Source: Takakia lepidozioides (taxonomy: Eukaryota; Plantae; Bryophyta). Taken from it: a stretch of DNA of 64,000 bases. The notes under the pieces are model-generated. The model ran no database searches, was not told where the DNA came from, and saw only the letters and a list, made by a program, of their open reading frames with translations. Of the stretch, positions 11,611 through 64,000 are shown in pieces; position 1 is the first letter of the stretch, and each line of letters begins with the position of its first letter. The DNA is taken from the NCBI GenBank assembly GCA_030704615.1, contig CM060733.1:73532001-73596000 (forward strand). Direction: 5' to 3'. A program made the translations under genes and the position numbers.

Positions 11611-12387
11611 AAGCGGGCTCCCACCTTCACCATCTTTGGTGATTCTCCTCCAACTGACATGTCCACCAACTGCGTTGTCGGTTCTGACGTGAAAGTTGAT
11701 CCTCGTTGGATTGTCTCCGGAGGATGGTGGATCACATGTTGTGGAGGTTTCACTTGTGCAATCCTTTCTAATAAGGGTGGGCACGGGAGGTCTCCCGTCC
11801 TCTTCTGTTGGGAATACCTCAGCATCAGAGCAGTTGAACTATACTGAGGATCGGGTTGAAGACTGGAGAGAATGATATCACCGCAGCTGCGGAGGCACTA
11901 GCAAGGAATCCTCTGGAGGCTTTTGAGAGAACCCCAGTCAAAGAGAAAGGTTTGTACTGCTTTTGTTCTCTATCTTCGATCCTCATGAATTTGTTTCAAA
12001 TCAATTGTAGGAGCGCGTGGCGTGGCGTCGAAGAATCTCACGGAGGTGTGCTCTCTCATTACACTTTCTCACTTTACATCGATTGACATCATCTTGCTGC
12101 CTCTAACGAGACGTTGTTCTGTTTCAGCGGCAAAGAAGAGACGTAGAAAGCAGAGCCCGAAGAAGGATCGGGAAAGAATCACTCGGCGCCATTTTCCCAG
12201 ACACAGGTACCAGTGCATGTTGGGACTTAGCCAGTTTTCGGCCCCAAAAAGAGAAATTCGGCGCCATTTGAATGGAATATTGCCTCATTCCAGGAGTTTT
12301 GGGGTGCATTTCATTACACTGCAAAAAAAAGTCTGATACAGCAAAATGCATTTGAAAATATCCATATGGAGGATTCCGTTTGCCCCA

Positions 12388-15300: not shown

Positions 15301-15975
15301 AAGAAGATATTACCGTCGACGTCGGTGGGAAGGCATGTAACCGATTTAATTGCGAACTTGCTGTAGTCCAGCTCGGCCAGCTCCGACCGGTGTCCCTCCA
15401 GGTGAAGCCCTCGCAGAATTTCAAGAATAGATCGAACTGCGGTGCTCGTGCTGGCAATATGACTCCCTCCTCCAACTGACGTCCATTGAGGACTTGCCTG
15501 ATCTCCAGGACGACCTCGGAACTTCCATGACCTCGTCTGAGTCGGACAGGTTGTGAACAACCCGGTTCTCGCTCGTCTTCATGGATGGGTTCGGCTCTGG
15601 ATTTACTTCGTTGCGGACTTCTCTCTTTGAGGTAGCCACTCTCTGATTCGCGGATTGTTTCGTGGAAGGCGCCAGGATAGAAGGTGCATTTGGCGGGCAA
15701 ATGAAGTCCCCAACAGCCCTGTATATGACGTTGTCCAATGGTAGAACTCGCCATTCCCTGCCATCGCCGAAATCATCGTGGAGCACAACAATACTCTCGA
15801 CAACAAGGCCGTTAGAGTCCTTCCTTTCCTCCTCCAAAAAAACCGACCCCGGTTTCAAGTGGTATCGAACGTACAGATATTTCTCCATCACTCGGCAGGT
15901 GTCCCCTCTGCACGGAAATGAAGCTCTATGCTCGTGAGGAGGGCAGTACACTGTAGTGCTCGGGTTTTCCGCCAT
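12388..15975 (-). pseudogene. MULE-1 transposase (GCM-like, DDE, SWIM), full-length but disrupted
   Basis: DGHPWC..CAGALRC..C..CAHC..C..HVGSHCH; WVMFDHIKR, FMADNAQA, SCGFH, TNMAESVH; SWIM CNCTDF..PCKHLYY. Stops at 12928, 13931 and 14829, plus frameshifts. Confidence 0.9.
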
Positions 15976-16249
15976 GGGAGATGTGCACACAAGACTGCCA
16001 GGATGGCGTGCGGGGAAGCTCCCTGGTAGAAGGGGGATGCAGCGATGGGAATGAATGCGATGCCGATTTGTCCGAGCGACGAAGCCTGATCCAAATCCAG
16101 GGAGCCAACTATCTCAAAAATCCAAAGTCAGAGTGTTAATGAACCTTGTCTCCGGAATGCGGCCCCTGCTCTTTGCGCAATAACTGCCAACGGTATGCAG
16201 TCAGAAAGTGGGGGGCCGTCCGGATGATGACGGCTGAAGGGGAGAAGCC

Positions 16250-18010
16250 GGCACCGTGCCGTCACATTACTACCCCCGAATAGAAATTCGGCACCCAATA
16301 TCCAACAGGGGAAGCCCGGATGAAGTCGCCTCGGGTGCAGAGGCCGGCGCGTGTGCGACAGAGAACATCCCCTGGATGAAGATTCGGCGCCGAATTTCCA
16401 TCCGGGCCCCCCAAAGGAAGTCGTGTCGGGGGGTCAGGCCGAAAACTGGCCGGCATAAAAACATCCCCAGATGGAAAAACGGCGCCGAATTTCCATCCGG
16501 GGCGGTTCGGATGCAGTCGGGGAGGGGGGAGAGGCCGGCACTTGGCCGTCACATTTCAACCCCCAGACGGAAATTCGGCACCAAATATCGAACAGGGGAC
16601 GCCCGGATGAAGTCGCCTCAGGCGTAGAGGTCGGCACGTGTTCGACAAAGAGCATCCCCTGGATAGAGATTCGGCGCCGAATTTCCATCCGGGCCCCCCC
16701 AAAGGAAGTCTTGTCGGGGGGTCAGACCGAAAACTGGCCGACATAAAAACCTCCCCAGATGGGAAAACGGCGCCGAATTTCAATCCGGGTTCGAATTACC
16801 TGCAGTCGGGGAGGGGGGAGAGGTCGACACCTGGCCGTCATATTTCAACCGCCGGACGGAAATTCGGCACCGAATATCCCACAGAGCGGCGGAGAGGCCG
16901 GCACCTCTCCGACAGAGACCATCCCCCGGATGGAAATTCGGCGCCGAATTTCCATCCAGCAGGTAAGTGGAATCCCGGATGGATGGAAATTCGGCGCCAA
17001 ATTTCCATCCTGCAGGTAATTCGAATCCCGGATGAATGGAAATTCGGCGCCGAATTTCCATCCAGCAGGGAAGTGGAATCCCGGATGGATGGAAATCCGG
17101 CGTCGAATTTCCATCCAGCAGGTAAGTGGAATCCCGGATGGATCGAAATTCGGCGCCGAATTTCCATCCTGCAGGTAATTCGAATCCCGGATGAATGGAA
17201 ATTCGGCGCCGAATTTCCATCCAGCAGGTAAGTGGAATCCCGGATGGATGGAAATCCGGCGCCGAATTTCCATCCAGCAGGTAAGTCGGATCGCTGGCGT
17301 ATGGATATTCGGAGCTGAATTTCCATTCGCCAGGTATTTCATCGCTCAGAATTACCTTCCTGCAGGTAATTCTGGTCGATGAATTACCTTCCTGCAGGTA
17401 ATTCCTATCGATGAAGGTTGGAAGGTAATTCCTCGCTCAGAATTCTCCCAGAAGAGAATTACCTGCAGGAAGGTAATTCTCATCTGGGAATTACCTGCCG
17501 GATGGAAATGCGGCGCCGGATCTCCATCCATCCGCTCTCCGCCCAACCTTGCGGATGGAAATCCGGCGCCGGATTTCCATCCATCCGCTTCTGAATTACC
17601 TGCGTGAGGGAAATTTGGCGCGCCGCCCTACCTGCGCGGATGGAAATCCGGCGCCGGATTTCCATCAGCGCGCTTCTGAATTACCTGCGTGAGGGATATT
17701 TGGCGCGCCGCCCTACCTGCGCGGATGGAAATCCGGCGCCGGATTTCCATCCGCGCGCTTCCGAATTACCTGCGTGAGGGAAATTTGGCGCGCCGCCCTA
17801 CCTGCGCGGATGGAAATCCGGCGTCGGATTTCCATCCGCGCGTTTCTGAATTACTTGCGTGAGGGAAATTTCTAGCGCCGCCCTACCTTGCTGGATGGAA
17901 ATTCGGCGCTGAATTTCCATCCTGCTGCGCTCCGAATTACCTGCAGGATGGAAATCCGGCGCCGATATTCCATCGTGCAGCGCTCCGAATTACCTCTACG
18001 TTGGAAATTT
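16250..18010. repeat. Central intergenic array of palindromic GATGGAAATTCGGCGCCGAATTTCCATC units (nested ~300, ~45/90 and ~89-bp periods)
   Basis: Dozens of cores readable directly. Lies between the divergent transposase and ParB-MTase genes. Confidence 0.9.
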
Positions 18011-18224
18011 CGGGCCTGTTTACGTCGATTTTCATCCGACATGGAGGGCTTCATCCGACATTTAATTGCGCAGTTGGGCAATAAATGTCGACCGCCGTCG
18101 GTTATCATTCGGGCTGGCGACGCATGGCTTCCTGGACACGTACCCTAAATCTCATGCTAATCTTGGCTTAACATGCTATTCGAGGCATGTACCCCAAAAA
18201 AAAAGATCTTTTTGGCTGGGACTT

Positions 18225-21200
18225 ATGCCGCCTGAAGGGCGTGGCTCTCCTGAGAGAGACCTCACATCCAGACCGCGGTGGAAGTTGAAAGCTCTGTACT
18301 ACGGACGACGGCCAATCTCTCGCATGGCCAAACTGAAGCTCCAGCAGGAGATTCCAGTGTCTTGCTCACAACCATCGCGGGCAAGAGCAGCCCCCGCAAT
18401 TACCCATACGGTGGAGAGTGGAGGAGAGGAAAGAACACCTGAAAGAGCACGGATTGTGCAAGTTCGAGGTGAAGCCAGGGAGAGGGCAGTAGAGACGAGG
18501 AGAGTGCTGGAGGTGGTTTCGCAGGTGGCTGACCCTGTTGAGGAGGACGACAGGGAGCTTTCTGACCAGGATGACATCCTCCCTGACATCCCCAGGCCCC
18601 AAACCCGGAGCATACAGGCTGGATTTGGCGGTCCTGGTGGGCTGCCGGAAAACCCCTCTGCAGCAGACGTCATGTCTGAGGCGGATATGAAGTTGGCCGC
18701 TGCCAAGATGTTGGAGGCAACCCACAGCAATATTGGCAGGGTGCTGGGGGGCATGGTGTACCCGGCCAAGCTTTGAATTCCCCTTTGCCGCTTGGTGTCA
18801 TTGCAGGTGGTGAGACCTGCCCTCCCAGGCGATATCGACAAGCTGAAATTCTCTTTCCGGGATGGATATCGAATGGGGTTTGCCGCGTTTTACGTTTCCA
18901 TTGAGAACGACCACGGAGCTTCCCGTGCCCACACTTCCGATGAGGTGGGCAAATGGGGTCCCCATTGGCAAACGCGAAATGAGGAGTTCGAGAGATCGAT
19001 TGCTAGTGATCCTCTTTTCCAGCACTTGTCCGGTAAGATGTTCTACGTGTGGGATGGCAATCATCGCCTCCTGGCATGGATGGAGCACATTGCCCAAGCC
19101 CACCCCAACGACCTCGATTGGCATTTCGCCGTGGATTGTGTTGTGCTGAAGGTTGCGGGGCCCAAAGATCGCAGTCTTCTCAAAGCTGCAATGGCCGACA
19201 TCAACTCGTAAGCTACAACCCCTCTCGTTTTTGGACTTTGAATTTGGAAGTCATTTCATTGCGAATCCTCATATATGATGGAAATTCCCATTTCAGTATT
19301 GTTTGATGGAAATGTGGCACTGCAGGGTGACTGAGAATGCCTTCATTGCCACCAACTTGTCCCATATGCTCTTCCGAGTGAAGGATGTCGGGAAGCAGGG
19401 GGTGCAAGAGTTTGCCAATTCCCTCAGTGCCGACCTCCTGCGCAAGTCGGAGGCAAAGGCAGACAGAACCTGGTATAGGCTGAGCGTCGACGCCATGGTG
19501 GACTACATATTTCGGGTAAAGCTCCTGACAGTTTTGTTGAGCTAATCTGTCTCTCCTCCCCCAATAGAAGAAATTGTGTTGAGCAGGATCTCTAATCTTA
19601 TGTGCGCATTCTTGACAGACGAAAATACAGCAGGATTTGGCACATGCGCGGAGGTTCTACATGGAGTCAGAGGAGAAGAATCCAACCCTCCCGGAACTCG
19701 AATCGTATGTCAAAGCTGCGGAGGTGAGGGCCCGCATAAAGTACAAGTCGCGGATGGTAAAGTACGTGGCCATAGCTGATCCCGCCCTTGGTGCCGACTT
19801 TCTGGTGGAGGTGGGGAAGCACTACTCTCGCGCTTTGAAGCCCACGATGACATTGGAGAAGCTCCATCGTCTAGCCACATCGTGTGTGGATGCAACAGAA
19901 AAGGTGATACATTCTTAACCAAATTGTGGTGGCAACAACTTCTTTTTGTGGTGTTTGGCGCTTACGAATATGCTGGGTGGTTGGACAGACCCGGTGGCTC
20001 CAAATCTGGAATGGTTCCCAAAGTACCAGGGACATGTGGAGCTTCCCCAAACCGGACAAACTCTCTGACCCCACATTCGACATGTGGATGAACCGCATGA
20101 CATGGTGGTTTCAGGTACTTCCCCACGCTTCGTTTGGGGCTTCTACTCTAGTAGGGGGTGGATTCATTGTATTTTTCCAAGAAAGCGATCTGATGGAGAA
20201 TCTCCACAGGTGACGACGAATGCGCAAGAGCAGCTGGACACACAAGCACATCAGTTCAAGATGGAGATATCTCCTGCAGCAGAGAGCCTACGTGACTATG
20301 TGACGAGGTACTTTCTGCTCTACAAAACCAACCTATTCTTTCGGGAGATAGCAGATGCTCGCCGGAGCCACGAGTTCACCGACCAGCCGAACGCGGACAA
20401 AGCAGCAATGCGCCTTCTGTACAGGTACATACGCGCTGCCTTTCTTTCAAGTCCTTGCATTTCAGGATGTTAGAGGCCTCAAGTGGTGTTAGGGAAAATG
20501 GCGCCGAATTTCCAATCAGGGCTCCGAAAATGGCTAAGTCCCTAGACTGGCTGGCCCGGAACTGGAAATTCGGCGCCATTTTCCAGTTCCAGGCCCTATT
20601 GCCGTTCAGGGACTTAGCCATTTTCGGGCTAAGTCCCTAGGGTGGCTGGCCCTGAATTGGAAATTCGGCGCCATTTTCTAGTTGTAGGCCCTATTGCCGT
20701 TCAGGGACTTAGCCATTTTCGGGCTAAGTCCCTAGGGTGGCTAGCCCGGAACTGGAAATTCGGCGCCGTTTTCCAGTTCTAGGCCCTATTGCCGTCCAGG
20801 GACTTAGCCATTTTCGGGCTAAGTCCCTAGGGTGGCTGGCCCGGAACTGGAAATTCGGCGCCGTTTTCCAGTTCTAGGCCCTATTGCCGTCCAGGGACTT
20901 AGCCATTTTCGGGCTAAGTCGCTAGACTGGCTGGCCCTGAACTGGAAATTCGGCGCCATTTTCCAGTTCCAGGCCCTATTGCCGTTCAGGGACTTAGCCA
21001 TTTTCGGGCTAAGTCCCTAGACTGGCTGGCCCTGAAGTGGAAATTCGGCGCCATTTTCCAATTGTAGGCCCTATTGCCGTTCAGGGACTTAGCCATTTTC
21101 GGGCTAAGTCCCTAGGGTGGCTGGCCCGGAACTGGAAATTCGGCGCCATTTTCCAGTTCTAGGCCCTATTGCCGTTCACGGACTTAGCCATTTTCGGGCT

Positions 21201-22366
21201 AAGTCCCTAGGGTGGCTGGACCTGAACTGGAAATTCGGCGCCATTTTTCCAGTTCTAGGCCCTATTGCGGTTCTGGGACTTGGCCATCTTCGGGCCAAAC
21301 CGGGAAAAATGGCGCCGAATTTCCATTTCAGGGCTTCCAAGATGGCTAAGTCCCTAGGGTGGCACTCACCGAAAACCGAAATTCGGCGCCATTTTTCCAT
21401 TTCTAGGCCCACTCACATCCGCCCCAACCTGGGAAAATGGTGTCGAATATGCATTTCAGGGACCTCATTGTGTTTTTCATGAATGCAGGTACTGCAAGTT
21501 CTCCCTTTTGGAGAAAGGTCATCTGTCTTTCGAGCCACCATTCTTCCTGGCATGGAGGAACCCTGGGGCTGACTCCATGTACACTGACGATATTGTGAAG
21601 GAGTGGCATCTGGAACATTTGCGTGATTGCCCTTGGTATGTGGACCTTCCGCCCGGCTCGCTCGACCCATCCGAGTTTCAATTGAAGCTGGATGCTGAAT
21701 TCCGACGAAACCGGGCTCCGCTGCCTCCGTTGGGTGCAAAAGAGGCAAATGCGCTTGCAAACTCCAGGAAAGCGGCAGAGCTTGCTCAGGCAGGAATTCA
21801 GGAGAAATTGCATGAGAAGAGTAAAGGCCAAAGGAAAAGGACAAGGAAACAGGTGAGTGCAGTAACACCCAAAAAGAAGAAAACCATCGGGGCATCGGAG
21901 GAGGCGCAGGAGGGGACCCAAGAGAGTGACTCGGATGACGACTTTGTTCAAGGTCCTGCCATTGCTGTTGCTCCTACCCAGTCACCGGTCGTCCGGGTTC
22001 CCAAGTCAGTTCGGAGTGGGACTGGCTCTGCCAAGAAGTTGGCATTTGAGGGCGAGCCTACACGGCGGTATTCGGCGGTGACGTTTACGCACAGGCCAAA
22101 GCTAGAACCTCCAACCATCATCCAATGCGTCGATGAGAGCTTCCTTGACGCTCTCGCTGCCAGGGCGAAGAAGGTGGCACACAACAAGTCTCTGGCGGAG
22201 CAGAAAGGGAAAGCCAAGAAGAGGGCTGGCGGTACAGAGCCTAAAGACACCCCTGGTTTTGAAGCCATGATGGAATTCTTCACGGCTGTGAGCACGAATT
22301 GCAAGAGCACTCGGGGGGGGGTTGAGGTGGAGAGAGCTTGCGACATGATTCTCCTCGACATTCCAG
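18225..22366 (+). pseudogene. ParB-methyltransferase-like gene (copy B2), truncated at the DIP motif
   Basis: IPLCRLVSLQVVRPAL...FYVWDGNHRLLAW (DGNHR at 19053-19067). GT-AG exons match copy A. CGA>TGA stop at 18774. Confidence 0.75.
20490..21450. repeat. Intronic 95-bp tandem hairpin array (~8 units) within intron 20425-21488
   Basis: GGGCTAAGTC at 20626, 20721, 20816, 20911, 21006, 21101 and 21196. Confidence 0.95.
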
Positions 22367-30078: not shown

Positions 30079-30080
30079 CT

Positions 30081-39902: not shown

Positions 39903-41473
39903 CAAGAGACAATGGGAATTGATCACGGGAGACCCCCCTTGAGAAAACATACGGGAGAGGTCCCCTGAGTAGCACGGGAGACCTCCCCTGAGAAAATGTA
40001 CGGGAGAGGTCGCTTGAGTAGCACGGGAGACCTCCCCTGAGAAAATTCACAGGAGCGGCCCCTAAATAGCACGGGAGACCTCCCCTGAGAAAATGCTTGG
40101 GTCACCTGAGAAGCACGGGAGACCTCCCCTGACAAATTATCCTAATGCAATCAGTTGTGGGAAGATACGAAGAAATATACCTTGAGCTTGGTCCTGCCAT
40201 GGTGCCTGAAGAATATTCACACCAATCTATCATCAGCAATGCACCAATCAAATTACACCACGAAACCAGCAAAGCACGGGCTCGGCACCAGCTCTTTGGA
40301 TCGCCCTACTGAACGACAGACCGCACCACACAGCTGAACCTAACAAACGAACTCCTGAATACTGCTGAATGCAACAAACAACAGATGTAGAGCGCGGACA
40401 ATCCGACCCTCCTTCTCCTATCTCTTCCTCCCTCTCAAGCTCTCAAAACTGGTGGCTCTAAGTTTCAGCAGGGCTTTGCCGTCATGAAAATGTGAGAGGG
40501 AGAATGAACCAGGGAGCCTCAGCTTTTATACCCGGGGAGGCAGACCCATGCGATACCTTGCTATGGGTATGCCATGGCAGGCATGCCCGGTGCATGTCCC
40601 AAGAACTGCCACGCGCCCGCCATGCGCGAGATCCAAGCGGCGGCGGCCGCAGGGCTAGCAAACCTAGCCAATTATTAGGGGAGGGCTCCCGTGAAACGGC
40701 GTCTGCCACGCGCCCGCCATGCGCGAGATTCAAGCGGTGGCGGCAGCAGGGCCCGCAAACCTAGCCAATCATAATTATTAGGGGAGGGCTCCCATGAAAC
40801 GGCATCTGCCGCGCGCCCGCCATCCGCGAGATTCAAGCGGCGGCGGCCGCAGGGCCCGCAAACCTAGCCAATCATGATTATTAGGGGAGGGCTCCCGTGA
40901 AACGGCCCATTCAACTCATGAACATGGAAGGTTCTATGCCCTCCATCTGTAATGGACGGTCCAGATTCAACGATGCTTTTGAGCATGCATGTGATGGCAT
41001 ATCCATACTTAGTATTCCAGCACGTGGCGAGCAGGCAGGTTACGCATGTGTTGGAACGTCAGAGTACGGGAGGCCGCCCATGCCCGGATTCTTTGTACAT
41101 TCAATACCCACACTCCACACGGCCATAATGCGGCGGCAACGGCATTACTGAATGCAGCGGCGGCGCTACGGTACACTAGTGCGAATCTTACCTTCAATGA
41201 ATGCTGCAAGGGGAGAGCTCCCGTGGCGCGACGCAACGTCATCATGGTCATACGACATCCATCGAATCCGACGACTCAAATTAGATCTGGTATCCCATTG
41301 GACGGTTCCGATTACATTGATTTCGTCGTGTAGGTACACCATAGATGATATCCATCCACGTGGCGGCCACGCAGATGTCGTACTGTCGGGTACGGGAGGG
41401 CCCCCGTCCCAGTCATTATTGCAAGTAATTAATGAAACGATTCCCCTTTCTGCACAAGCCTCATATATGGGTG
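39903..41473. mobile_element. Left part of the ACGGGAG-palindrome element that is split by MULE-1 copy A
   Basis: ~48-bp tandem ACGGGAGACCTCCCC units at 39925-40135. Three ~100-bp GC-rich tandem units at 40610-40905. Continuity with 52855 onward is shown by the TSD. Confidence 0.5.
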
Positions 41474-41724
41474 GAGGTTAGCTATTTCATGAGCATGAGC
41501 GACATGAGCGGCATGAGCGGAGTAGTAAGACAATCGGTTTTCATGAGCAGAAGTACAAATTTCGAAAATAAAAAACAATAAAAAACAATAAAAACATTAA
41601 TTTAATGCAATGTGTCAGGAAAAACAAATATATTATTCGGCCCCTTGAAGGGAAAATTGTAGTTTTGACAGTTGTGCTCATGATATTTCGTCTTCCGCTC
41701 ATGCCAATTCCCAGCGACATGTGC

Positions 41725-42090
41725 AAATATGGCGCCGAATTTCGCGGTAATAGGGTCCGTAACCTGAAAAAACGGCGACATATTTCGCGGTAATAGGTCT
41801 CTCTGGCGAAAAATGGTGCCGAATTCCGCGGCTATAGGTCCCCTCATGACAGGTAATTTGGCGCCATTTTTCCAGTGCATGTTCGGACTTAGCCAGTTTT
41901 TGGCGCAAAATAGGGAAATTCGGCGCCATTTTTCCAGACACTGTACGAGTGCATGTTGGGACTTAGCCAGTTTTCGGCCCAAAAAAGAGAAATTTGGCGC
42001 CATTTTCCCAGACACAGGTACCAGTGCATGTTGGGACTTAGCCAGTTTTCGGCCCCAAAAAGAGAAATTCGGCGCCATTTTTCCAGAAAT
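41725..42090. repeat. Left subterminal array (~70-bp units, GAAATTCGGCGCCATTTT core)
   Basis: GCATGTTGGGACTTAGCCAGTTTTCGGCCCC units; also at 60620-60980. Confidence 0.9.
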
Positions 42091-42207
42091 GGCCTCACAA
42101 CTGCTTCTGTTGGATCTCAGTTTGAATGGAATATTGCCTCATTCCGAGCCGGCCGTTGCCATCCGATACACACGCCCAAGGCTGGGTGGGGGTACGTCCA
42201 CGGAGCT

Positions 42208-44464
42208 CTAAATAGTACAAGTCATCCCAAGAGCATTGGCAATCCGAGTCTCATTCAACTTGTTGGGAGGGTGTCGTCTCTTCACTCTTCCGAATCGCAT
42301 TGTGGGATGTGCAGAATTGTCCAATCCGTCTCTACTGGACCGAACAGTCTGCAATGGCTGGGTCTGAGGAACCGGAAATGCATGGGCCGGGATGTCTGTG
42401 CGTTGCACCATTCGAAATCCTGCTGCAGATAGAGCATCCGCCTCATTCTGAGAGAGCCTGCAACCCAGTGCAACAGGCCAGACGCCCGGAGGCTCCGGCA
42501 TTCCCTGAATCCCGTACTTGGGCTTGCCAAATACACACGTCATTATGTCGTGCCTACAGAACCAAAATGTCTGCGTTGTGGCGTGAGCAAATGTGGGAGT
42601 CAAAAAACTGCCGCTGAAACAAGGTGCAGGTACAGCACCGTGTGGGTTCCTCCGAATCATCTCACCACAGCGTGCTCTCGTATCCACCCGGATGGCGCAA
42701 CACTTCCCTCGAAATGCCGGCAATGTCCTCGCAATTCTCCACTGTGACTCCGACACTCTTGTCTCCACAATGGGAATGTTGTACTGCTTTACTACAGATG
42801 GCTCGTTATGTTGCCGGGGCACGCGCCCTGTGCTCAAAGGAGATGGCGATCTTGAACGTGCAGGACTTGCGGTGCTCGACGAGACCTCCTCGGGCAACAT
42901 CACCGGACCACGAGGGAGCGTGCAAATATTCTTGTCAGCTCGCCATGAATCCTCTTCTCCGCTAGGTGCCTCGTCAAGTCTTCGTCTCACTGGACGGGTA
43001 TGAACATCTCCTTCCAAATGTTGGCCTCTTCGCAGCAATGGCGTGTCCCGAAGGCCCTCTCGCAAGGCCGCCGCCCACTTCCGAGGATTCTTCGATCTAG
43101 AGGCAGTCCGCATCAGCATTTCCTGCGTGTCCGGCCCCAAGCCCCACTGTTTCCCTTTCACGAACTCGTTGTACCTGCATTGCTGCATAATTGACCTCAC
43201 AATGTCCTCCGTTGTGGCAGTGAGGATGTCCACCAGATGCGCCGCAGAGGAGGCACGCCAAGAAGAGTGCACTGATTCGGCTTGGAGCTGTATCTGTTTG
43301 GGTTTGGCACCCGGTCTCAACCTAACCTCCTCCTGAATGAGCTGCTCTGCCTCGTGGGCAGCCTCCCGCGAGTTCTCCCTCGCCAATTTGTGACAATGGG
43401 AACCAACGTGTATGCAAGCTCGGGTGAGGTCAGGGAAACGGTGCAACACATAGAACTGCTTGGCATTACAAACAGACATGCAGTGTGGTGGTTCTTTGCA
43501 ATGCGCACACTTAAATGTGGAGTTTGGAACCTTCTCCTGAGCTCGAAATGGTTGATGAGCTGTGCCTGTCCAATCGGTCTCGTTCCTGTGACCTCTGGAT
43601 TTAAAGTGGAAGCAAGTTGGGGAGAAACACCGCAACGCGCCTGCACAAACAACGTAGCGCACCCGCACACCATCGAGCATCTTCATGCTGGTGGTTTTGG
43701 TAACGCACCAAGGATGACCGTCATGTTTTCTATCCATATCTGTCAACATTCCGGACGCCCTCGAGCAGTCCGCCCGAGGAGGGAACTCAAAGAAGATATT
43801 ACCGTCGACGTCGGCGGGAAGGCATGTAACCGATTTAATTGCAAACTTGCTGTAGTCCAGCTCGGCCAGCTCCGACCGGTGTCCCTCCAGGTGAAGCCCT
43901 CGCAGAATTTCAAGAATAGATCGAACTGCGGTGCTCGTGCTGGCAATATGACTCCCTCCTCCAACTGACGTCCATTGAGGACTTGCCTGATCTCCAGGAC
44001 GACCTCGGAACTTCCATGACCTCGTCTGAGTCGGACAGGTTGTGAACAACCCGGTTCTCGCTCGTCTTCATGGATGGGTTCGGCTCTGGATTTACTTCGT
44101 TGCGGACTTCTCTCTTTGAGGTAGCCACTCTCTGATTCGCGGATTGTTTCGTGGAAGGCGCCAGGATAGAAGGTGCATTTGGCGGGCAAATGAAGTCCCC
44201 AACAGCCCTGTATATGACGCTGTCCGATGGTGGAACTCGCCATTCCCTGCCATCGCCGAAATCATCGTGGAGCACAACAATACTCTCGACAACAAGGCCG
44301 TTTGAGTCCTTCCTTTCCTCCTCCAAAAAAACCGACCCCGGTTTCAGGTGGTATCGAACGCACAAATATTTCTCCATCACCCGGCAGATGTCCCCTCTGC
44401 ACGGAAATGAAGCTCTATGCTCGTGAGGAGGGCGGTACACTGTAGCGCTCGGGTTTTCCGCCAT
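42208..44464 (-). pseudogene. MULE-1 transposase of copy A, lacking most of the DDE core and the SWIM finger
   Basis: In-frame fusion QIQLQ-AESVHSSW at ~43280 (1036-bp deletion relative to copy C) and a ~334-bp deletion at ~42145. Confidence 0.9.
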
Positions 44465-44739
44465 GGGAGATGTGCACACAAGACTGCCAAGATGGCGTGC
44501 GGGGAAGCTCCTTGGTAGAAGGGGGATGCAGCGATGGGAAGGAATGCGGTGCCGATTTGTCCGAGCGACGAAGCCTGATCCAGATCCAGGGAGCCAACTA
44601 TCTCAAAAATCCACAGTCAGAGTGTTAATGAACCTTGTCTCCGGAATGCGGCCCCTGGTCTTTGCGCAATAATTGCCAACGGTATGCAGTCAGAAAGTGG
44701 GGGGCCGTCCGGATGATGTCGGCTGAAGGGGAGAAGCCG

Positions 44740-46275
44740 GCACCGTGCCGTCACATTACTACCCCCGAATGGAAATTCGGCACCCAATATCCAACAGGGG
44801 CCGCACGGATGAAGTCGTCCGGGGCAGAGATGCCGGCACCTGTCCGACAGAAAACATCCCCCGGATGGAAATTCAGCGCCGAATTTCCATTCGGATCCAC
44901 CCAAAGGAAGTCCTGTCAGGGGGTCAGGCCGAAAACTGGCCGACCTAAAAACCTCCGCGGATGGAAAAACGGCGCCGAATTTCCATCCGAGGCCTTTCGG
45001 ATGCAGTCGGCTTGGGGGAAAGGCCGCCATCTGGCCCTCACATTACAACCCCCGGACGGAAATTCGGCACCGAACATACAACAATGGAAGCCCGGATGAA
45101 GTTGCCTTGGGCGCAGAGGCCGGCGCGTGTGCGACAGAGAACATCCCCTGGATGGAGATTCGGCGCCGAATTTCCATCCGGGCCCCCCCAAAGGAAGTCG
45201 TGTCGGGGGGTCAGGCCGAAAACTGGCCGGCATAAAAACATCCCCAGATGGAAAAACGGCGCCGAATTTCCATCCGGGGCGGTTCGGATGCAGTCGGGGA
45301 GGGGGGAGAGGCCGGCACCTGGCCGTCACATTTCAACCCCCGGACGGAAATTCGGCACCGAATATCCAATAGGGGACGCCCGGATGAAGTCGCCTTGGGC
45401 GTAGAGGCCGGCACGTGTTCGACAAAGAGCATCCCCTACATGGAGATTCGGCGCCGAATTTCCATCCGGACCCCCCCAAAGGAAGTCGTGTCGGGGGGTC
45501 AGGCCGGCACCTCTCCGACAGAGACCATCCCCCGGATGGAAATTCAGCGCCGAATTTCCATCGGGGCCCCCTCAAAGGAAGTCGTAAAAACCTCCCAGAA
45601 TGGAAAAACGGCGCCGAATTTCCGTCCGAGGCTGTTCCGATTTGCCTCTAGCAGTCAAGGATTCCAAGAAAAACGTGTCTACAAGTGCACTTCAGCCACA
45701 AAACAAACAGTTAGGTTTGTTTTTCTACGAAAAATCAATCGGACACGCTCAGAATTACCTGCAGGAAGGTAATTCAGCGCTTCGAAATACCTGGCGAATG
45801 GAAATTCGGCGCCGAATATCCATACGCTAGCGATCCGACTTACTTGCTGGATGGAAAGTCGGCGTCGGATTTCCATCCATCTGGGATTTGAATTACCTGC
45901 AGGATGGAAATTCGGCGCCGGATCTCCATCCATCCGCTCTTCGACCAACCTTGCGGATGGAAATCCGGCGCCGGATTTCCATCCATCCGCCTCCGAATTA
46001 CCTGCGTGAGGGAAATTTCGCGCGCCGCCCTACCTGCGCGGATGGAAATCCGGCGCCGGATTTCCATCCATCCGCCTCCGAATTACCTGCGTGCGGGAAA
46101 TTTCGCGCGCCACCCTACCTGCGCGGATGGAAATCCGGTGCCGGATTTCCATCCATCCGCCTCCGAATTACCTGCGTGAGGGAAATTTCGCGCGCCGCCC
46201 TACCTGCGCTTATGGAAATCCGGCGCCGGATTTCCATCCTGCAGCGCTCCGAATTACCTCTACGTTGGAAATTCC
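44740..46275. repeat. Central intergenic palindrome array of copy A
   Basis: Repeated GGATGGAAAT(T/C)CGGCGCCG(A/G)ATTTCCATCC. Confidence 0.9.
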
Positions 46276-46496
46276 TGGCCGAGTTCCGTCGTTTTTCATC
46301 CGACATGGAGGGCTTCATCCGACATTTAATTGCGCAGTTGGGCAATAATTGTCGACCGCCGTCCGTTTTCATTTGGGCTGGCGACACATGGCTTCCTGGA
46401 TACGTACCCTAAATCTGATGCTAATCTTGGCTTAACATGCTATTCGAGGCATGTACCCCAAAAACGGAGATCTTTTTTCCATTTTGGCTGGGACTT

Positions 46497-49400
46497 ATGC
46501 CGCCTGAAGGGCGTGGCTCTCCTGAGAGAGACCTCACATCCAGACCGCGGCGGAAGCTGAAAGCTCTGTACTACGGACGACAGCCAATCTCTCGCATGGC
46601 CAAACTGAAGCTCCAGCAGGAGATTCCAGTGTCTTGCTCACAACCCGCGCCAACTAAAGCCGAGTACTCTCAGGCAAGCCACTTCTGCTTTCGCTTTGTT
46701 CGATTTCGCTTTTGCTTTCGCTTTCGCTTTCGCTTTGTTGCCTCGCTTTGTTTTTGCATCTTCATCCTGGCTTCGCTGGATGAGTGAACCTTAGATAGTT
46801 GAGTGAACCTTAGATTGTTTGCAATGCGTGTGCAAATCCGGCAGCTCTGGAGAAGGCTGCTTGTGCATGTCATTCTCAGGCAATGGTTGCATTTGTTTTC
46901 ATTGTTGTTGCATGGCTCTCCATACTTCCTAAACTTGTTATGTTTTCATTTTTGTTACCCGATTGTTGCTATGGTGGTTGCGATGCTGGTTTTGGCACCG
47001 ATGTTGGTTCTCACGATTTTGGGAATGACAGAGTGACGACGAGCCCGGCATGCTGGTGGTATCATCGACTGCTGCAACTCATCGCATGTTTGAACCGCCC
47101 ACCTTGGAGCGAGAGGGCAAACTTCAACCTTTTGTTGGTGGACGGGAGGACCTGCAGCGAGAGTACGACAGAACAGGCATTGGGGAGGTTGGTGAAGGCC
47201 TCATGGCAGGTGAAGGGCGTGAGGAAGTGAGAACAGCAGATCCGGCAATGGAGGTTGTTGATGCAGAAGCAGTAGGGCCTGTCCAAGCAAAGAAGAAGAA
47301 GAAGAAAGCCAAGCACGTGCAATCCCCGGTGCGAGAGCCGTCACGGGCTGCGGAGGGGGGAGTTCGCAGTGCGCGCGAGGGTGTCAGTTCGCCTACCTCA
47401 AAGGTGGTCGTCCATCTGGGCTCCCCTGCTGCTAGCCCTAATAAGAAACAGAAAGCCCGTGAGAGGGCAAAAGAGAGGGCAAAAGAACAGGCAAGACACA
47501 ACGCTAGCCAGGAGGAAAGAGAAAAGGTCACTGAAGAGGCCAGGGGTTCCGAACTGACAGATTCCCATGTAAGTGAGGGACGCACAGAGACGGTGGATCC
47601 CTCCAAGACACCACAAAGAGGCAGTAGCACACCGGTTAGACCATCGCGGGCAAGAGCAGCCCCTGCAATTACCCATACGGTGGAGAGTGGAGGAGAGGAA
47701 AGAACACCAGAAAGAGCATGGATTGTGCAAGTTCGAGGTGAAGCCAGGGAGAGGGCAGTAGAGACGGGGAGAGTGCTAGAGGTGGTTTTGCAGGTGGCTG
47801 ACCCTGTTGAGGAGGACGACAGGGAGCTTTCTGACCAGGATGACATCCTCCCAAACATCCCCAGGCCCCAAACCCGGAGCATACAGGCTGGATTTGGCGG
47901 TCCTGGTGGGCTGCCGGAAAACCCCTCTGTAGCAGACGTCATGTCGGAGGCGGATATGAAGTTGGCCGCTGCCAAGATGTTGGAGGCAACCCACAGCAAC
48001 ATTGGTAGGGTGCTGGAGGGCATGGTGTACCCGGCCAAGCTTCGAATTCCCCTTTGCCGCTTGGTGTCATTGCAGGTGGTGAGACCTGCCCTCCCAGGCG
48101 ATATCGACAAACTGAAATTCTCTTTCCGGGATGGATATCGAATGGGGTCTGCCGCGTTTTACGTTTCCATTGAGAACGACCACGGAGCTTCCCGTGCCCA
48201 CACTTCCAATGAGGTGGACAAATGGGGTCCGCATTGGCAAACGCAAAATGAGGAGTTCGAGAGATCGATTGCTAGTGATCCTCTTTTCCAGCACTTGTCC
48301 GGTAAGATGTTCTATGTGTGGGATGGCAATCATCGCCTCCTAGCATGGATGGAGCACATTGCCCAAGCCCACCCCAACGACCTGGATTGGCATTTCGCCG
48401 TGGAGTGTGTTGTGCTGAAGGTTGCGGGGCCCAAAGATCGCAGTTTTCTCAAAGCTGCAATGGCGGACATCAACTCGTAAGTTACAACGCCTCTCGCTTT
48501 TGGACTTTGAATTTGGAAGTCATTTCATTGCGAATCCTCATATATGATGAAAATTCCCATTTCAGTATTGTTTGATGGAAATGTGGCACTGCAGGGTGAC
48601 TGAGAATGCCTTCATTGCCACCAACTTGTCCCATATGCTCTTCCGAGTGAAGGATGTCGGGAAGCAGGGGGTGCAAGAGTTTGCCAATTCCCTCAGTGCC
48701 GACCTCCTGCGCAAGTCGGAGGCAAAGGCAGACAGAACCTGGTATAGGCTGAGCGTCGACGCCATGGTGGACTACATATTTCGGGTAAAGCTCCTGACAG
48801 TTTTGTTGAGCTAATCTGTCTCTCCTCCCCCAATAGAAGAAAAGGTCTTCGCCATGATTTCTAATCTCCTCCCCCAATAGAAGAAATTGCGGAGGGCCCG
48901 CATAAAGTACAAGTCGCGGATGGTAAAGTACGTGGCCATAGCTGATCCCTCCCTTGGTGCCGACTTTCTGGTGGAGGTGGGGAAGCACTACTCTCGCACT
49001 CTGAAGCCCACGATGACATTTGAGAAGCTCCATCGTCTAGCCACATCCTGTGTGGATGCAACAGAAAAGGTGATACATTCTTAACCAAATTGTGGTGGCA
49101 ACAACTCCTTTTTGTGGTGTTTGGCGCTTACGAATATGCTGGGTGGTTGGACAGACCCGGTGGCTCCAAATCTGGAATGGTTCCCAAAGTACCAGGGACA
49201 TGTGGAGCTTCCCCAAACCGGACAAACTCTCTGACCCCACATTCGACATGTGGATGAACCGCATGACATGGTGGTTTCAGGTACTTCCCCACGCTTCGTT
49301 TGGGGCTTCTACTCTAGTAGAGGGTGGATTCATTGTATTTTTTCAGGAAAACGATCTGATGGAGAATCTCCATAGGTGTTGACAAATGCGCAAGAGCAGC

Positions 49401-52400
49401 TAGACACACAAGCACATCAGTTCAAGATGGAGATATCTCGTGCAGCAGAGAGCCTACGTGACTATGTGACGAGGTACTTTCTGCTCTACAAAACCAACCT
49501 ATTCTTTCGGGAGATAGCAGATGCTCGCCGGAGCCACGAGTTCACCGACCAGCCGAACGCGGACAAAGCAGCAATGTGCCTTCTGTTCAGGTACATACGC
49601 GCTGCCTTTCTTTCAAGTCCTTGCATTTCAGGATGTTAGAGGCCTCATGTGGTGTTAGGGAAAATGGCGCCGAATTTCCAGTCAGGGCTCCGAAAATGGC
49701 CAAGTCCCTAGACTGACTTGCACTGAACTGGAAATTCGGCGCCATTTTCCAGTTCCATGCCCTATTGCCGTTCAGGGACTTAGCCAGTTTTGGGCTAAGT
49801 CCCTAGGGTGGCTGGCCCTGAAGTGGAAATTCGGCGCCATTTTCCAGTTCTAGGCCCTATTGCCGTTCAGGGACTTAGCCATTTTCGGGCTAAGTCCCTA
49901 GGGTGGCTGGCCCTGAACTGGAAATTCGGCGCCATTTTCCAGTTCTAGGCCCTATTGCCGTTCAGGGACGTAGCCATTTTCGGGCTAAGTCCCTAGGGTG
50001 GCTGGCCCTGAACTGGAAATTCGGCGCAATTTTTCCAGTTCTAGGCCATATTGCGGTTCTGGGACTTAGCCATCTTCGGGCCAAACCGGGAAAAATGGCG
50101 CCGAATTTCCAGTTCAGGGCTCCCAAGATGGCTAAGTCCCTAGGGTGGCAGTCACCGAAAACCGAAATTCGGCGCCATTTTTCCATTTCTAGGCCCACTC
50201 ACATCCGCCCCAACCTGGGAAAATGGTGCCGAATATGCATTTCAGGGACCTCATTGTGTTTTTCATGAATGCAGGTACTGCAAGTTCTCCCTTTTGGAGA
50301 AAGGTCATCTGTCTTTCGAGCCACCATTCTTCCTGGCATGGAGGAACCCTGGGGCTGACTCCGTGTACACTGATGATATTGTGAAGGAGTGGCATCTAGA
50401 ACATTTGCGTGATTGCCCTTGGTATGTGGACCTTCCGCCCGGCTCGCTCGACCCATCCGAGTTTCAATTGAAGCTGGATGCTGAATTTCGTCGAAACCGG
50501 GCTCCGCTCCCTCCGTTGGGTGCAAAAGAGGCAAAAGCGCTTGCGAACTCCAGGAAAGCGGCAGAGCTTGCTCAGGCAAGAATTCAGGAGAAATTGCATG
50601 AGAAGAGTAAAGGCCAAAGGAAAAGGACAAGGAAACAGGTGAGTGCAGTAACACCCAAAAAGAAGAAAACCATCGGGGCATCGAAGGAGGCACAGGAGGG
50701 GACCCAAGAGAGTGACTCAGACGACGACTTTGTTCAAGGTCCTACGACTGCTGTTGCTCCTACCCAGTCACCGGTCGTCCGGGTTCCCAAGTCAGTTCGG
50801 AGTGGGACTGGCTCTGCCAAGAAGTTGGCATTTGAGGGCGAGCCTACACGGCGGTATTCGGCGGTGACGTTTACGCACAGGCCAAAGCTAGAACCTCCAA
50901 CCATCATCCAATGCGTCAATGAGAGCTTCCTTGACGCTCTCGCTGCCAGGGCGAAGAAGGTGGCACACAGCAAGTCTCTGGCGGAGCAGAAGGGAAAGCC
51001 AAGAAGAGGGCTGGCGGTACAGAGCCTAAAGACACCCCTGGTTTTGAAGCCATGATGGAATTCTTCACGGCTGTGAGCACGGATTGCAAGAGCACTCGGG
51101 GGGGGGGGGGTGTGTTGAGGTGGAGAGAGCTTGCGACATGATTCTCCTCGACATTCCAGATGGGGAGCTGCTGGAGGGCCTGGATGGTGTGCCCACCTGG
51201 AACAGGTTTACTGAGGACTACTGGAAAGCCGGGTTTGGGCTAGCGGGGATGCTTCTGGATGACGGTGGATGTGTGGTTGTCCTTGCCACGAGAGGGAAGA
51301 CCACAGAGAATACGGTGGCAAGGTGGACACCGAAAAGTGTCACCCCGGTCCTCCTCAGAAAATGGTTCTGCATCAGTACACAGGGGTTGCGAACAGAGGG
51401 TCAAAGTGTAAGTTATCAATCTATTGCATTCACTTCATATTGTGGTGTATGTTAAGTAGACCTTGGAGTTGATCCCTTCTTTGTTGGATGTGCAGACATT
51501 GGTGTTTGAGGCATATTGCTTTGTGAAGAGAGGGTCTACGTTCAAATTCCGCAACGACGGTCGTCTTGTTGATGCCGCTGTGGACCTTGTAACCTACGAT
51601 GTCCTCTACAACTATGTGCCCCACTCCAGTATGCCGAAGGACACAAAGACAGGCAAACCGTGGCGGTACAGCCGGACCCGGAGCCCTGCTTTCATCCAAA
51701 CCCTCATGGAGACGTGCTCGGATGTCCAAGGGCGGATTCTGGACCTCACATGCGGCACGGGTAAGCCTTCACGTGCTCAGTTTGTCCCCTGGCCCGATTG
51801 CAATTGCATGCCGCAAGCTATTAACCGCCCGCTTTGTTAGGTGCTTCAATGTGGGCAGGGACATTGTCCGACAGGCATGTGTTCGCCTTCGAGCCAGATA
51901 CTGCCCTCCACAACTTGGAACTTGCAGCGGCTGAACGTCTGCCGAAAGAGGAAGAGGCATCCTCGGAGGATGAGGAAAAATCCGAGAAGGAGCAGGGGGA
52001 GGAAGTTGGGATCGAGGCCGAGGAGCCCCCGGTTTACGAGTGAGTGGTGGCATTGTAAGTTGCCTCCAGATTTCGTGAGGCACCTCCCTCCGCTCTCTTA
52101 TTTCATTGAAAACCCTTTCTGGTTGTGCTGGTATTGACATTCTTGAAGTGGATTTGTTCTTACTGTAGGATGCCAAGTACGGCAGGAGGGACGTCTACAC
52201 CGGAGTTCATGGGCAGGAGGAACGTGCTTTTTTTTGCCAGGGGGGATTTCATGCCTAGTCCAGAAAGGGAGTACATCCTTCCTACTTATGCTGCCCGGCT
52301 TGCTTCGGTGTCCATTAGGAGGTGTTCCGAACCTAGTCGTGTACAGCAGATTTTAGACGAGGCAAGCCTCAAGAAAATGAAAATGAGGGAGGAGGCAGCA

Positions 52401-52625
52401 GCTATTAGAGCCCGTCGGGCTCGTAGATTTGTCTTGGATTCTGCTGAGGAAAGTGGGGGAGAAGACGCAGAAGATTCCCAGGAGGTGAGGTGGACAGTCC
52501 CCCAAGGAGAGGACGGGATTTTTGAGAGGCATAGTGGAACTGATGCATCACAGAGCTTGGAGGAGGGGGATGAGGGGGATGAGGAAGAAGGTGGGGCAAG
52601 TTCCTCGGAGGGTGTAGGAGAGTAG
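46497..52625 (+). CDS. Multi-exon ParB/Srx-like plus beta-class amino-DNA-methyltransferase-like protein (copy A, with lesions)
   Basis: Predicted exons: 46497-46673 (GC donor), 47032-48476, 48595-48784, [exon partly deleted ~48840-48890], ~49154-49280, ~49376-49590, 50275-51407, 51496-51760, 51841-52039, 52169-52625. Motifs DGNHR 48322-48336, DMILLDIPDG (DIPD at 51150-51161), RSPAFIQTLMETCS..GRILDLTCGTG|ASMWAG..DRHVFAFEPD. 1-nt indel near 50990. Confidence 0.75.
49660..50240. repeat. Intronic 95-bp hairpin array (~4 units) within intron 49591-50274
   Basis: GGGCTAAGTCCCTAG at 49792, 49887 and 49982. Confidence 0.9.
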
Positions 52626-52854
52626 TGCCCATTCCGGCTATGACAGTTAGAACACACTTGTATAGACGTGGCTTGCCACAAAATTTGCAATAAAATGTTG
52701 CATTTCAAGTCCACTGGTGCCACATTCCAACTTCACATGACCCTATTTCCGTGCCTCCTAACCCTATTTCCGTGGACTCACAATGGTCTGCTCATGCTTT
52801 TTTTTTTCTCGCTCATGCTCATGCCGCTCATGAAATAGCAGCCCCCTATGGGTG

Positions 52855-60364: not shown

Positions 60365-63300
60365 GAGGTTTGCTATTTCATGAGCATGAGCGGCATGAGC
60401 GGCATGAGCGGCATGAGTAGAGTAGTAACACAATCGGTTTTCATGAGCAGAAGTACAAATTTTGAAAATAAAAAACAATAAAAAAAACAATAATTTAATG
60501 CAATGTGTCAGGAAAAACAAATATATTATTCGGCCCCTTGAAGGGAAAATTGCACTTTTGACAGTTGTGCTCATGATATTTCGTCTTCCGCTCATGCCAA
60601 TTCCCAGCGACATGTGCAAATATGGCGCCGAATTTCGCGGTAATAAGGTCCGTAACCTGAAAAAACGGCGACGTATTTCGCGGCAATAGGTCTCTCTGGC
60701 GAAAAATGGTGCCGAATTCCGCGGCTATAGGTCCCCTCATGACAGGTAATTCGGCGCCATTTTTCCAGTGCATGTTCGGACTTAGCCAGTTTTCGGCCCA
60801 AAAAAGAGAAATTCGGCGCCATTTTTCCAGACACGGTACCAGTGCATGTTGGGACTTAGCCAGTTTTCGGCCCCAAAAAGAGAAATTCGGCGCCATTTTC
60901 CCAAACACAGGTACCAGTGCATGTTGGGACTTAGCGAGTTTTCGGCCCCAAAAAGAGAAATTCGGCGCCATTTTTCCAGAAATGGCCCCACAACTGCTTC
61001 TGTTGGATCTCAGTTTGAATGGAATATTGCCTCATTCCAGGAGTTTTGGGGTGCATTTCATTACACTGCAAAAAAAAAGTTGATACAGCAAAATGCATTT
61101 GAAAATATCCATATGGAGGATTCCCTTTGCCCCATCAATGATTTCTGGAATCCCTAAGGAGGAGTTTGTGCAGCTCGTTCACGCTCAACGCCGGTGCATG
61201 AATAAAGTCATCAATAGTCACGTTCATCCTCAACCTCTTCAGGTAAATGTAATACAGATGCTTGCACGGATAATACTTCGAACCCTTCTTTGCTTCCATC
61301 AACGAGAAGTCCGTACAATTGCAAGTCGGCTCCACTCCAATCGTAATTGTGTAAACATCGTCGCGTACAGCCGAGCCGGCCGTTGCCATCCGATACACAC
61401 GCCCAAGGCCGGGTGGGGGTACGTCCACGGAGCTCTGAATAGTGCAAGCCATCCCAAGAGCATTGGCAATCCGAGTCTCATTCAACTTGTTGGGAGGGTG
61501 TCGTCTCTTCACTCTTCCGAATCGCATTGTGGGATGTGCAGAATTGTCCAATCCGTCTCTACTGGACCGAGCAGTCTGCAATGGCTGGGTCTGAGGAACC
61601 GGAAATGCGTGGGCCGGGATGTCTGTGCGTTGCACCATTCGAAATCCTGCTGCAGATAGAGCATCCGCCTCATTCTGAGAGAGGCTGCAACCCGGTGCAA
61701 CAGGCCAGACGCCCGGAGGCTCCGGCATTCCCTGAATCCCGTACTTGGGCTTGCCAAATACACAGGTCATTATGTCGTGCCTACAGAACCAAAATGTCTG
61801 CGTTGTGGCGTGAGCAAATGTGGGAGTCAAAAATCTGCCGCTGAAACAAGGTGCAGGTACAGCACCGTGTGGGTTCCTCCGAATCATCTCACCACAGCGT
61901 GCTCTCGTATCCACCCGGATGGCGCAACACTTCCCTCGAAATGCCGGCAATGTCCTCGCAATTCTCCACTGTGACTCCGACACTCTTGTCTCCACAATGG
62001 GAATGTTGTATTGCTTTACTACAGATGGCTCGTTATGTTGCCGGGGCACGCGCCCTGTGCTCAAAGGAGATGGCGATCTTGAACGTGCAGGACTTCCGGT
62101 GCTCGACGAGACCTCCTCGGACAACATCACCGGACCACGAGGGAGCGTGCGAATATTCTTGTCAGCTCGCCATGAATCCTCTTCTCCGCCAGGTGCCTCG
62201 TCAAGTCTTCGTCTCACTGGACGGGTATGAACATCTCCTTCCAAATGTTGGCCTCTTCGCAGCAATGGCGTGTCCCGAAGGCCCTCTCGCAAGGCCGCCG
62301 CCCACTTCCGAGGATTCTTCGATCTGGAGGCAGTCCGCATCAGCATTTCCTGCCTGTCCGGCCCCAAGCCCCACTGTTTCCCTTTCAAGAACTCGTTGTA
62401 CCTGCATTGCTGCATAATTGACCTCACAATGTCCTCCGTTGTGGCAGTGAGGATGTCCACCAGATGCGCCGCAGAGGAGGCACGCCAGGAAGAGTGCACT
62501 GATTCGGCCATGTTTGTCGTGGGCATGTCGGTGTCGGAGTCGAGACACATTTCCTGCACAAGCACATGTTCAGGTTACAAGCAAGTTACAAATATGGCCA
62601 AGAATAATATCCAACGGGACGCGAATTCGTGCAACTCACCTCCCGCATATAGTCGCCGAACTGAAGAAACGATAATGCCACCATGCTAGCCAACTGACCA
62701 TTGCTCCTTCGTCTGATTTCCTTACAGCACCTGACGATGTCCACCAAGCCCGTATGCATGCAAACTGTGTCTCTGCATCATCCAAGGTGGGAGCGCGCTT
62801 CCACGCAAGGCACATGGAACGGTGCTCCTCTCTGAAATCTGGCGCCACGAGCCTGGTTGTGTACTGCGAAAGGCTCTGCAGAAAATGGAACCCACAAGAT
62901 CTCTCCTTGCCTTCCATGGGAACATTGGGGTCTTGCCCGTACACCCTTCGGATGGCAGCCCAATTTGCTTGTGCGTTGTCCGCCATGAAACCACGGAAAT
63001 TCGGAGGGGGCAATCCCGCCTTGGCCATCTGTTCGTTTATTCCCTGCCAAAGAAGCATCTCCGATTGTGTGTCCTCTCCTTTCATCTCACAAATAGCAAT
63101 TGTCATTAGCATCCTGCAGTGGGTGTCGTAGACATGTGCACCCATTGTCACCCACTGGTGATTTGTAATTCGCTTGATATGGTCGAACATGACCCAACTG
63201 TTTGACAAGTTCCCACTCGTCATCCTGTCGACCAGTTCGACGCCACTGCCAGGTCCACACGTGGACATTTTGAATACGAAACAACGATCTGCCTCAGTCC

Positions 63301-64000
63301 CTTGTCCTGGAAACCTACTTCCATGAATGTAGTCATATCCACATCGTCGCTTCACCTCCAGAATGGAGTGCATATCCGAGCCACGCCCAATTTTCTGTTT
63401 GCATGAGACAATGTGGTTTCGGACATTCGGTGAACATACGTGGGACACCGACTCCAGCAATGCCTCCATTTCCTTCTCGTCGAGAGGAACTCTATCGGAG
63501 CCGTCTTCCGACATAATTCTGGCCAATGCCATCTTATGGGCGGCTTGGAGCTGTATCTGTTTGGGTTTGGCACCCGGTCTCAACTTAACCTCCTCCTGAA
63601 CGAGCTGCTCTGCTTCGTGGGCAGCCTCCCGCGAGTTCCCCCTCGCCAATTTGTGACAATGGGAACCAACGTGTATGCAAGCTCGGGTGAGGTCAGGGAA
63701 ACGGTGCAACACATAGAACTGCTTGGCATTACAAACAGACATGCAGTGTGGTGGTTCTTTGCAATGCGCACACTTAAATGTGGAGTTCGGAACCTTCTCC
63801 TGAGCTCGAAATGGTTGGTGAGCTGTGCCTGTCCAATCGGTCTCGTTCCTGTGACCTCTGGATTTAAAGTGGAAGCAAGTTGGGGAGAAACACCGCAACG
63901 CGCCCGCACAAACAACGTAGCGCACCCGCACACCATCTAGCATCTTCATGCTGGTGGTTTTGGTAACGCACCAAGGATGACCGTCATGTTTTCTATCCAT
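60365..64000 (+). mobile_element. MULE-1 copy C, left TIR and transposase; runs off the window
   Basis: Starts GAGGTTTGCTATTTCATGAGC; collinear with copies A and B2. Confidence 0.92.
61135..64000 (-). CDS. MULE-1 transposase (copy C), best-preserved copy; intron 62554-62639; 1-nt deletion near 62665
   Basis: Open frames of 454 and 476 aa with GCM-like, D-D-CxxH-E and SWIM motifs. GTGAGT...TGCAG intron. Confidence 0.88.

Follow-up and report, generated by a model that had tools for sequence, protein, structure and literature searches.

The VANDAL transposons have been described as unique among the known transposon groups in binding their own sequence and modifying it (bioRxiv 10.1101/2025.02.11.637652). 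They are Mutator elements with an accessory protein, VANC, of proven activity, and the motifs concerned, which are specific to each family, are amplified in tandem-repeat tracts, some upstream of the transposase and others within introns (PMC5735166, PMC10398659). Two proposals of a similar kind come from algae. The accessory gene of the Ectocarpus element Sola1-1_Ec32 is placed opposite the transposase and encodes a protein of ~1,100 aa in which a ParB-like domain is combined with an N4C/N6A methylase domain; the authors suggested that this protein binds to the transposon that carries it and modifies that DNA (PMC12477816). In the red algal Plavaka/Mutator elements PAG2 and PAG3, a ParB-like accessory domain is found beside tandem inverted-repeat arrays, the cassette includes a PF01555 methylase, and a self-binding hypothesis was put forward (bioRxiv 10.1101/2025.02.11.637652). 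Further background can be found in PMC4738411, PMC8885841, PMC6431247, and PMC12973397. Accessory genes that combine ParB and methylase domains, inverted-repeat arrays, and the idea of self-binding are therefore already published for algal transposons.

The element that we describe here lies in a 64-kb stretch of DNA, the whole of which was analysed and is called the window below. Like VANDAL, it carries a short motif that has multiplied in tandem repeats of its non-coding DNA, in the promoter and in an intron. However, the VANC21 motif is a 9-mer in one orientation, whereas the motif in the window is a CpG-rich palindrome of 22–34 bp; the accessory protein, with its ParB and methylase-like domains, is set apart from VANC by domain content; and its binding role is a candidate one, while the activity of VANC is proven. 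The likeness to Sola1-1_Ec32, which we compared by its description, lies in the joining of ParB and an N4/N6 methylase or methylase-like domain in one gene opposite the transposase. Yet that element belongs to a brown alga, has a Sola transposase, and comes with no target motif in the description used for the comparison (PMC12477816), whereas ours, whose host is likely a land plant judging by the relatives of its protein, has a putative Mutator-type transposase and a degenerate catalytic motif, and possesses a precise target candidate. In the red algal elements, as the text describes them, one gene joins ParB to a 2OG oxygenase, another joins the methylase to SET, and the arrays adjoin the accessory genes; in the window ParB and methylase form one gene, and the arrays occupy the promoter, an intron, and one end.

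The likeness extends to the bacterial ParB/parS, KorB, and Noc systems in the N-terminal fold, in a GxxR-type motif, and in palindromic, repeated sites. Bacterial parS sites are 16 bp long, and the ParB proteins load at such sites and spread. ParB/parS works with ParA, whereas the window element has no ParA and no identified helix-turn-helix, and a role in partition is not expected in a plant nucleus. If binding holds, this would be a self-recognition system of the VANC or parS type, although its protein is not VANC and, judged by its sequence, lacks the catalytic residues of N4/N6 methylases. We found no description of a land-plant counterpart in the literature searched, which did not cover the supplements of the algal papers or Iyer et al. 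2011. To the algal proposals the element adds a Mutator variant from a land plant, and its motif is precise and can be tested. The self-binding hypothesis becomes directly testable through this motif, a gene that is transcribed and spliced, a highly repeated family, relatives in liverwort and fern genomes, and a natural series of families that differ in their palindromes. If true, it could help explain the success of transposons in the large genomes of seed-free plants, and a sequence-specific protector against CG methylation would be a possible tool.

A Mutator-like element and its copies

Copy B (41474..52846) is a defective Mutator-like DNA transposon of 11.4 kb. Its terminal inverted repeats are short and imperfect (~35 bp, with a 14-bp exact core), both termini carry GCTATTTCATGAGC, and identical ends were found in copies C and D. 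An 8-bp target-site duplication, TATGGGTG, flanks it on the left (41466..41473) and on the right (52847..52854). Contigs of sequencing runs X8 and X12, which we guess to be RNA although they have no RNA record, diverge at position 52846, the right boundary of the copy. The duplication falls within the range of 8–11 bp known for MULEs, among which non-TIR and short-TIR forms exist (PMC6446971).

The transposase gene of copy B (42208..44464, reverse strand) has lost ~1 kb of the catalytic core and the SWIM end when compared to copies A and D. The frames gave no match to the Pfam MULE family, and the SWIM match in copy D (E 0.004) is below the cut-off. Our putative assignment to Mutator relies on the target-site duplication, this weak SWIM finger match, and DDE and CxxH motifs, which we take to be those of the element's transposase.

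Three other copies lie in the window. Copy A (12183..22366) contains the transposase, intergenic arrays (16212–18015), an accessory gene interrupted by LTR-retrotransposon sequence, and an intron array (20492–21400). Copy C (7367..11620, reverse strand) retains the 3′ part of the accessory gene, an intron array with a 146-bp unit, and a rearranged array of the promoter type. Copy D (60365..64000) contributes a left end, a subterminal array (60616–60980), and open transposase frames that reach past the window. Unit number and period differ between the copies. The family is highly repeated: 55,841 contigs of DNA run X1 map to the window, a figure that measures repetitiveness and not copy number.

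Other sequences surround these copies. A second family of Mutator-type transposase, 33–39% identical to the main one, is found at 3489–7000 (reverse strand), adjoined by a NIF-phosphatase-like frame (1207–2238, Pfam E 1e-5). A chromodomain retrotransposon of the Ty3 type occupies 29354–36327 (forward strand); it has an open frame of 1,314 aa, and its LTRs are 99.6% identical, which indicates a very recent insertion. CpG-depleted retrotransposon-like copies (22366–29353, 36361–39897, 55337–60058) carry 10-bp CACAGC repeats and, following pol, an additional long coiled-coil frame. In the element that received the insertion of copy B, a GC-rich 103-bp repeat is present in three copies (40606–40906). 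A weak DUF7869 match (E 0.003) was obtained at 54113–54460.

The accessory gene and its protein

The accessory gene (46597..52625, forward strand) is arranged head-to-head with the transposase and has ~9 exons and an uncertain start codon; in copy B it is damaged by one exon deletion, one stop, and one frameshift. Contigs of run X8 skip three predicted GT..AG introns (49591–50274, which holds an array, 51408–51495, and 51761–51840), and, if our guess that X8 is RNA is right, transcripts are made from the gene family and the array lies within an intron. The promoter arrays lack cover in these guessed RNA runs, an absence to which we give no weight. In the 5′ region, a 60-bp piece (46798–46856) is matched by many deep X8 and X12 contigs with common loose ends, which suggests a segment shared with another abundant sequence.

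Both domains expected from the preliminary description, which had spoken of a ParB-MTase-like protein, were found, the first as a ParB/sulfiredoxin-fold domain (47931..48477, forward strand) with VRP and WDGNHR motifs. Its structural model has a pLDDT of 93. In Foldseek, PadC, Noc, Srx, and ParB proteins lead the list (best E 0.012); in a structure comparison KorB is the best match (Z 8.1, rmsd 2.5, 90 aligned), and the best eight rows (VIA) are all of the ParB/Srx type. The domain also matches phrog_1033 (E 0.0095). In an 82-row alignment, the GxxR-type motif is conserved among the rows that cover it at G133 (91%), N134 (100%), H135 (91%), and R136 (81%). By its predicted structure, then, the first domain of the accessory protein is a ParB/sulfiredoxin fold with an intact GxxR-type motif. 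A helix-turn-helix was not identified, the folded model spanning the ParB domain and not the helical region after it. The accessory exons returned nothing above the cut-off in Pfam, NCBIfam, and PDB sequence searches, and Pfam gave no match to a VANC or DUF domain. A profile of the ParB domain collected 898 proteins at E ≤0.001; among the ten that we looked up, eight come from Adiantum or from Riccia sorocarpa. Exons 1, 3, and 6 of the window can be aligned with a Riccia protein of 1,207 aa.

The second domain (51117..51987, forward strand) is encoded by three exons and resembles N4C/N6A methylases of the beta class, with a motif IV of DIPD and a SAM-binding motif of DLTCGTG. The motif order is permuted as in that class, motif IV preceding the SAM-binding motif I. 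A search with one methylase exon gave no matches. PF01555 scores E 1e-5 to 5e-5, below the cut-off, against Riccia relatives that include the 1,207-aa protein; phage DNA-methylase profiles match relatives; and the methylase part of a Riccia protein, in a low-confidence model (pLDDT 48), finds M1.HpyAVI (E 7e-5) and CcrM in Foldseek. PF01555 enzymes possess a catalytic (D/N/S)PP(Y/F/W), where the window protein has DIPD. Among 22 Riccia rows, 6 did not cover the motif or were misaligned, and the remaining 16 (16/16) read D[LM][PS][TS], with no aromatic fourth residue; one Adiantum protein keeps the aromatic residue (DVPF). Going by these residues, we consider the catalytic motif degenerate in the window protein and its Riccia relatives, and a methylating activity of the usual kind is improbable for this domain. 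The earlier idea that the arrays serve as binding or modification sites is weakened by this as far as self-marking is concerned.

The palindromic arrays

With ≤3 mismatches allowed, the 22-mer GGAAATTCGGCGCCGAATTTCC matches the window 50 times, whereas 100 shuffles gave 0.00 matches on average, in agreement with the preliminary description, which had reported an amplified motif. At ≤6 mismatches there are 87 matches, and all of them (87/87) sit in arrays inside the four copies of the one element, with 0/87 in coding DNA. No window DNA outside the copies of this Mutator-like family yielded the motif at this threshold, so its reported absence from exons and neighbouring elements holds. In the 28-bp form, the palindrome has no exact match among prokaryote genomes.

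In copy B, the motif was counted 5 times in the left subterminal array, 18 times between the two genes, and 7 times in one intron, and was not found in ~7.6 kb of coding exons together with the other introns, nor at the right end. The left subterminal array (41723..42084) is where it had been reported, but its unit of 74–75 bp corrects a period first given as ~70 bp; its five motif copies are asymmetric and are accompanied by a GGGACTTAGC motif. Between the genes, array 1 (44701..45623) consists of 96-bp units, three of which form a 287-bp higher-order repeat, with one palindrome per unit and 10 copies, and array 2 (45777..46288) of 53- and 85-bp units with palindromes of ≤30 bp and 8 copies; the promoter periods of 45, 90, and 300 bp previously proposed have to be replaced by these. 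The intron array (49658..50184) has a 95-bp unit, 146 bp in copy C, as described earlier, and 7 asymmetric copies of the motif.

The symmetry of the motif is not the same everywhere. An exact 34-bp palindrome is present in the rearranged array of copy C (11129–11162), as claimed, but it is not the maximum: the longest in the window measures 38 bp (17719–17756) and has a CC/GG variant, which also forms perfect 30-bp palindromes at 45955 and 46040. Within 44740–46275 there is no perfect copy of the 22-mer. The full symmetric palindrome is restricted to the intergenic (promoter) arrays, while the intron and subterminal copies follow the asymmetric consensus GGAAATTCGGCGCCATTTT(T)CC. A perfect palindrome in all three compartments is thus ruled out. 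A second motif, GGGACTTAGCCA, occurs in the subterminal as well as the intron units, and the two unit types can be aligned along the unit, which points to a common origin. This also limits the earlier statement that the core is kept while the flanks differ: between units, identity is indeed 0.81–0.95 in core columns versus 0.44–0.68 in flanks, in a comparison biased by the choice of matches by their core, but these two unit types are alike well beyond it.

Base composition was also considered. The observed/expected ratio of CpG is 1.13–1.31 in promoter and subterminal arrays and 0.64–0.73 in intron arrays. Between copies, CG/CHG transitions are ~2–5 times as frequent as CHH in coding DNA and show no such excess in the arrays, from small counts and uncertain array alignments. 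The missing excess and the high CpG of the promoter arrays weakly fit a protection from methylation; the intron arrays, unlike the promoter and subterminal ones, do not have high CpG, which counts against this reading.

Related families and competing explanations

Fifty metagenome loci, AT-rich and decayed, encode relatives with ~30–45% protein identity. They show no DNA similarity to the window apart from the WDGNHR codons, and none of the 50 has a match to the window 22-mer. A palindrome M1, a decayed CAACTTTCGGCGCCGAAAGTTG defined after the data were seen, is present in 23 of the 50 loci, or 11 distinct ones, against 1 match in 39 shuffles, and belongs to a family with ~40% protein identity to the window accessory protein. 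In 7 of the 11 distinct loci, M1 lies in two places, upstream of the ParB exon at a distance of 0.4–1.8 kb and downstream in a 51-bp intron array; the array intron differs, following the homologue of exon 6 in these loci and preceding exon 6 in the window. A count seeded on the arms (69 matches in 11 loci, background included) shows eight central columns that are mainly C/T and G/A, as expected if the ancestral centre was CGGCGCCG, and we infer CAACTTTCGGCGCCGAAAGTTG as the ancestral form of M1 from these sequences. This form and the window motif have a 12-bp centre, TTCGGCGCCGAA, in common and differ in their arms.

Other families have other palindromes. M2, a different one located upstream, occurs in 3 of the 50 loci, and a third type, centred on TGCACGTCA-like letters, is found downstream only, in L038, where a 74–76-bp array downstream of the ParB exon (12675–13130) contains its own long decayed palindrome. 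No clear palindromic array was seen in L012, L029, L036, and L043. In a ParB tree with 53 rows (24 database proteins, the window, and those 28 of the 50 loci that remained once duplicates and short ones were removed), each motif type falls on one supported branch (M1, 100/100; M2, 100/99). Locus L050 is nested in the M1 clade without the motif and has only 2 kb in common with the family. M1 does not have the window protein as its sister, so the 12-bp centre may be convergent. The co-variation of motif and protein sequence proposed as a check in the preliminary description is supported, a distant family keeping the inferred 12-bp centre in the same compartments and other families having other palindromes, within only three or four independent points, since the members of each M clade belong to a single old repeat family (75–80% DNA identity). 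The M1 family also includes a decayed frame convergent with the ParB gene, seen in L044 (15300–18460, reverse strand), with homologues in L001, L011, L025, and L028 and no Pfam match.

The explanation that we favour, tentatively and at nearly even chances, is that the ParB-methylase-like protein encoded by the element itself loads at the arrays and would thereby hold the common promoter active against host cytosine methylation. A dimer of the ParB type would recognise the two half-sites of the palindrome, load there, and spread as bacterial ParB proteins do, and the methylase-like domain may grip or shield the three CpGs of its centre. Tandem amplification would then provide a density of sites that marks the family's own copies, like the targets of VANC. 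The CpG-rich centre kept across families that are otherwise dissimilar outside codons points to a protein-binding site, and palindromic symmetry, the internal position of the arrays, and the empty right end argue for the ParB-like protein as the binder. We also considered a wider version, which we find doubtful as it stands: that seed-free land plants have a widespread anti-silencing system of bacterial components, in which a ParB-type clamp with a repurposed, non-catalytic methylase fold loads at CpG-rich palindromes specific to each family. This would be a parS-like code of self-recognition independent of VANC, in which the arms of the motif co-evolve with the protein and 5mC is shielded off.

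The binder might instead be the transposase, activating and demethylating its own element, with the accessory gene as passenger or helper. There is a precedent in AtMu1, whose transposase alone binds motifs and hypomethylates and activates its copies (bioRxiv 10.64898/2026.08.24.746577), and one of the arrays is subterminal. However, most motif copies are internal and the right end is empty, so that a symmetric end-binding site is ruled out and the accessory protein fits better. In the metagenome loci, the upstream region yielded opposite-strand fragments of a transposase only in L011 and L023–025, where both genes may travel with the motif; L001, L028, L040, and L044 keep the gene and the arrays, yet the ≥8.9 kb of upstream sequence available for each revealed no transposase, which decay or deletion could explain. 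On balance we judge this role of the transposase unlikely.

It also seems improbable to us that the arrays are neutrally expanding, hairpin-prone satellites, or sites of a host factor or of a small-RNA pathway. Such an origin would suit the variable period and unit number, the homology of subterminal and intron units beyond the core, the presence of another palindrome in neighbouring elements, and the several related families that have no clear array. It would not suit the absence of the motif from all other window DNA, nor a three-CpG centre kept in two families otherwise devoid of non-coding similarity, though sites decay fast in dead copies.

That the protein is an active amino-methyltransferase, writing 4mC or 6mA at or near the palindrome to mark self and block 5mC, appears very improbable, since DIPD in the window and the motifs of all 16 Riccia rows miss the aromatic residue of DPPY/SPPY, even if the beta-class motif order and SAM-binding motif are retained, relatives match PF01555 (below the cut-off) and phage DNA-methylase profiles, the Adiantum relative has DVPF, and 4mC exists in a land plant, Marchantia (bioRxiv 2021.02.12.428880).

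A second palindrome, GACGGGAGRYCTCCCGTC, has 14 matches, against 0.05 expected, in neighbouring, mutually dissimilar DNA (window positions 570–2411, 11782, 39973–40131, 41391, and 53203–53523). No ParB gene was seen to accompany it within the window, and palindromes of this kind may be frequent in the genome.
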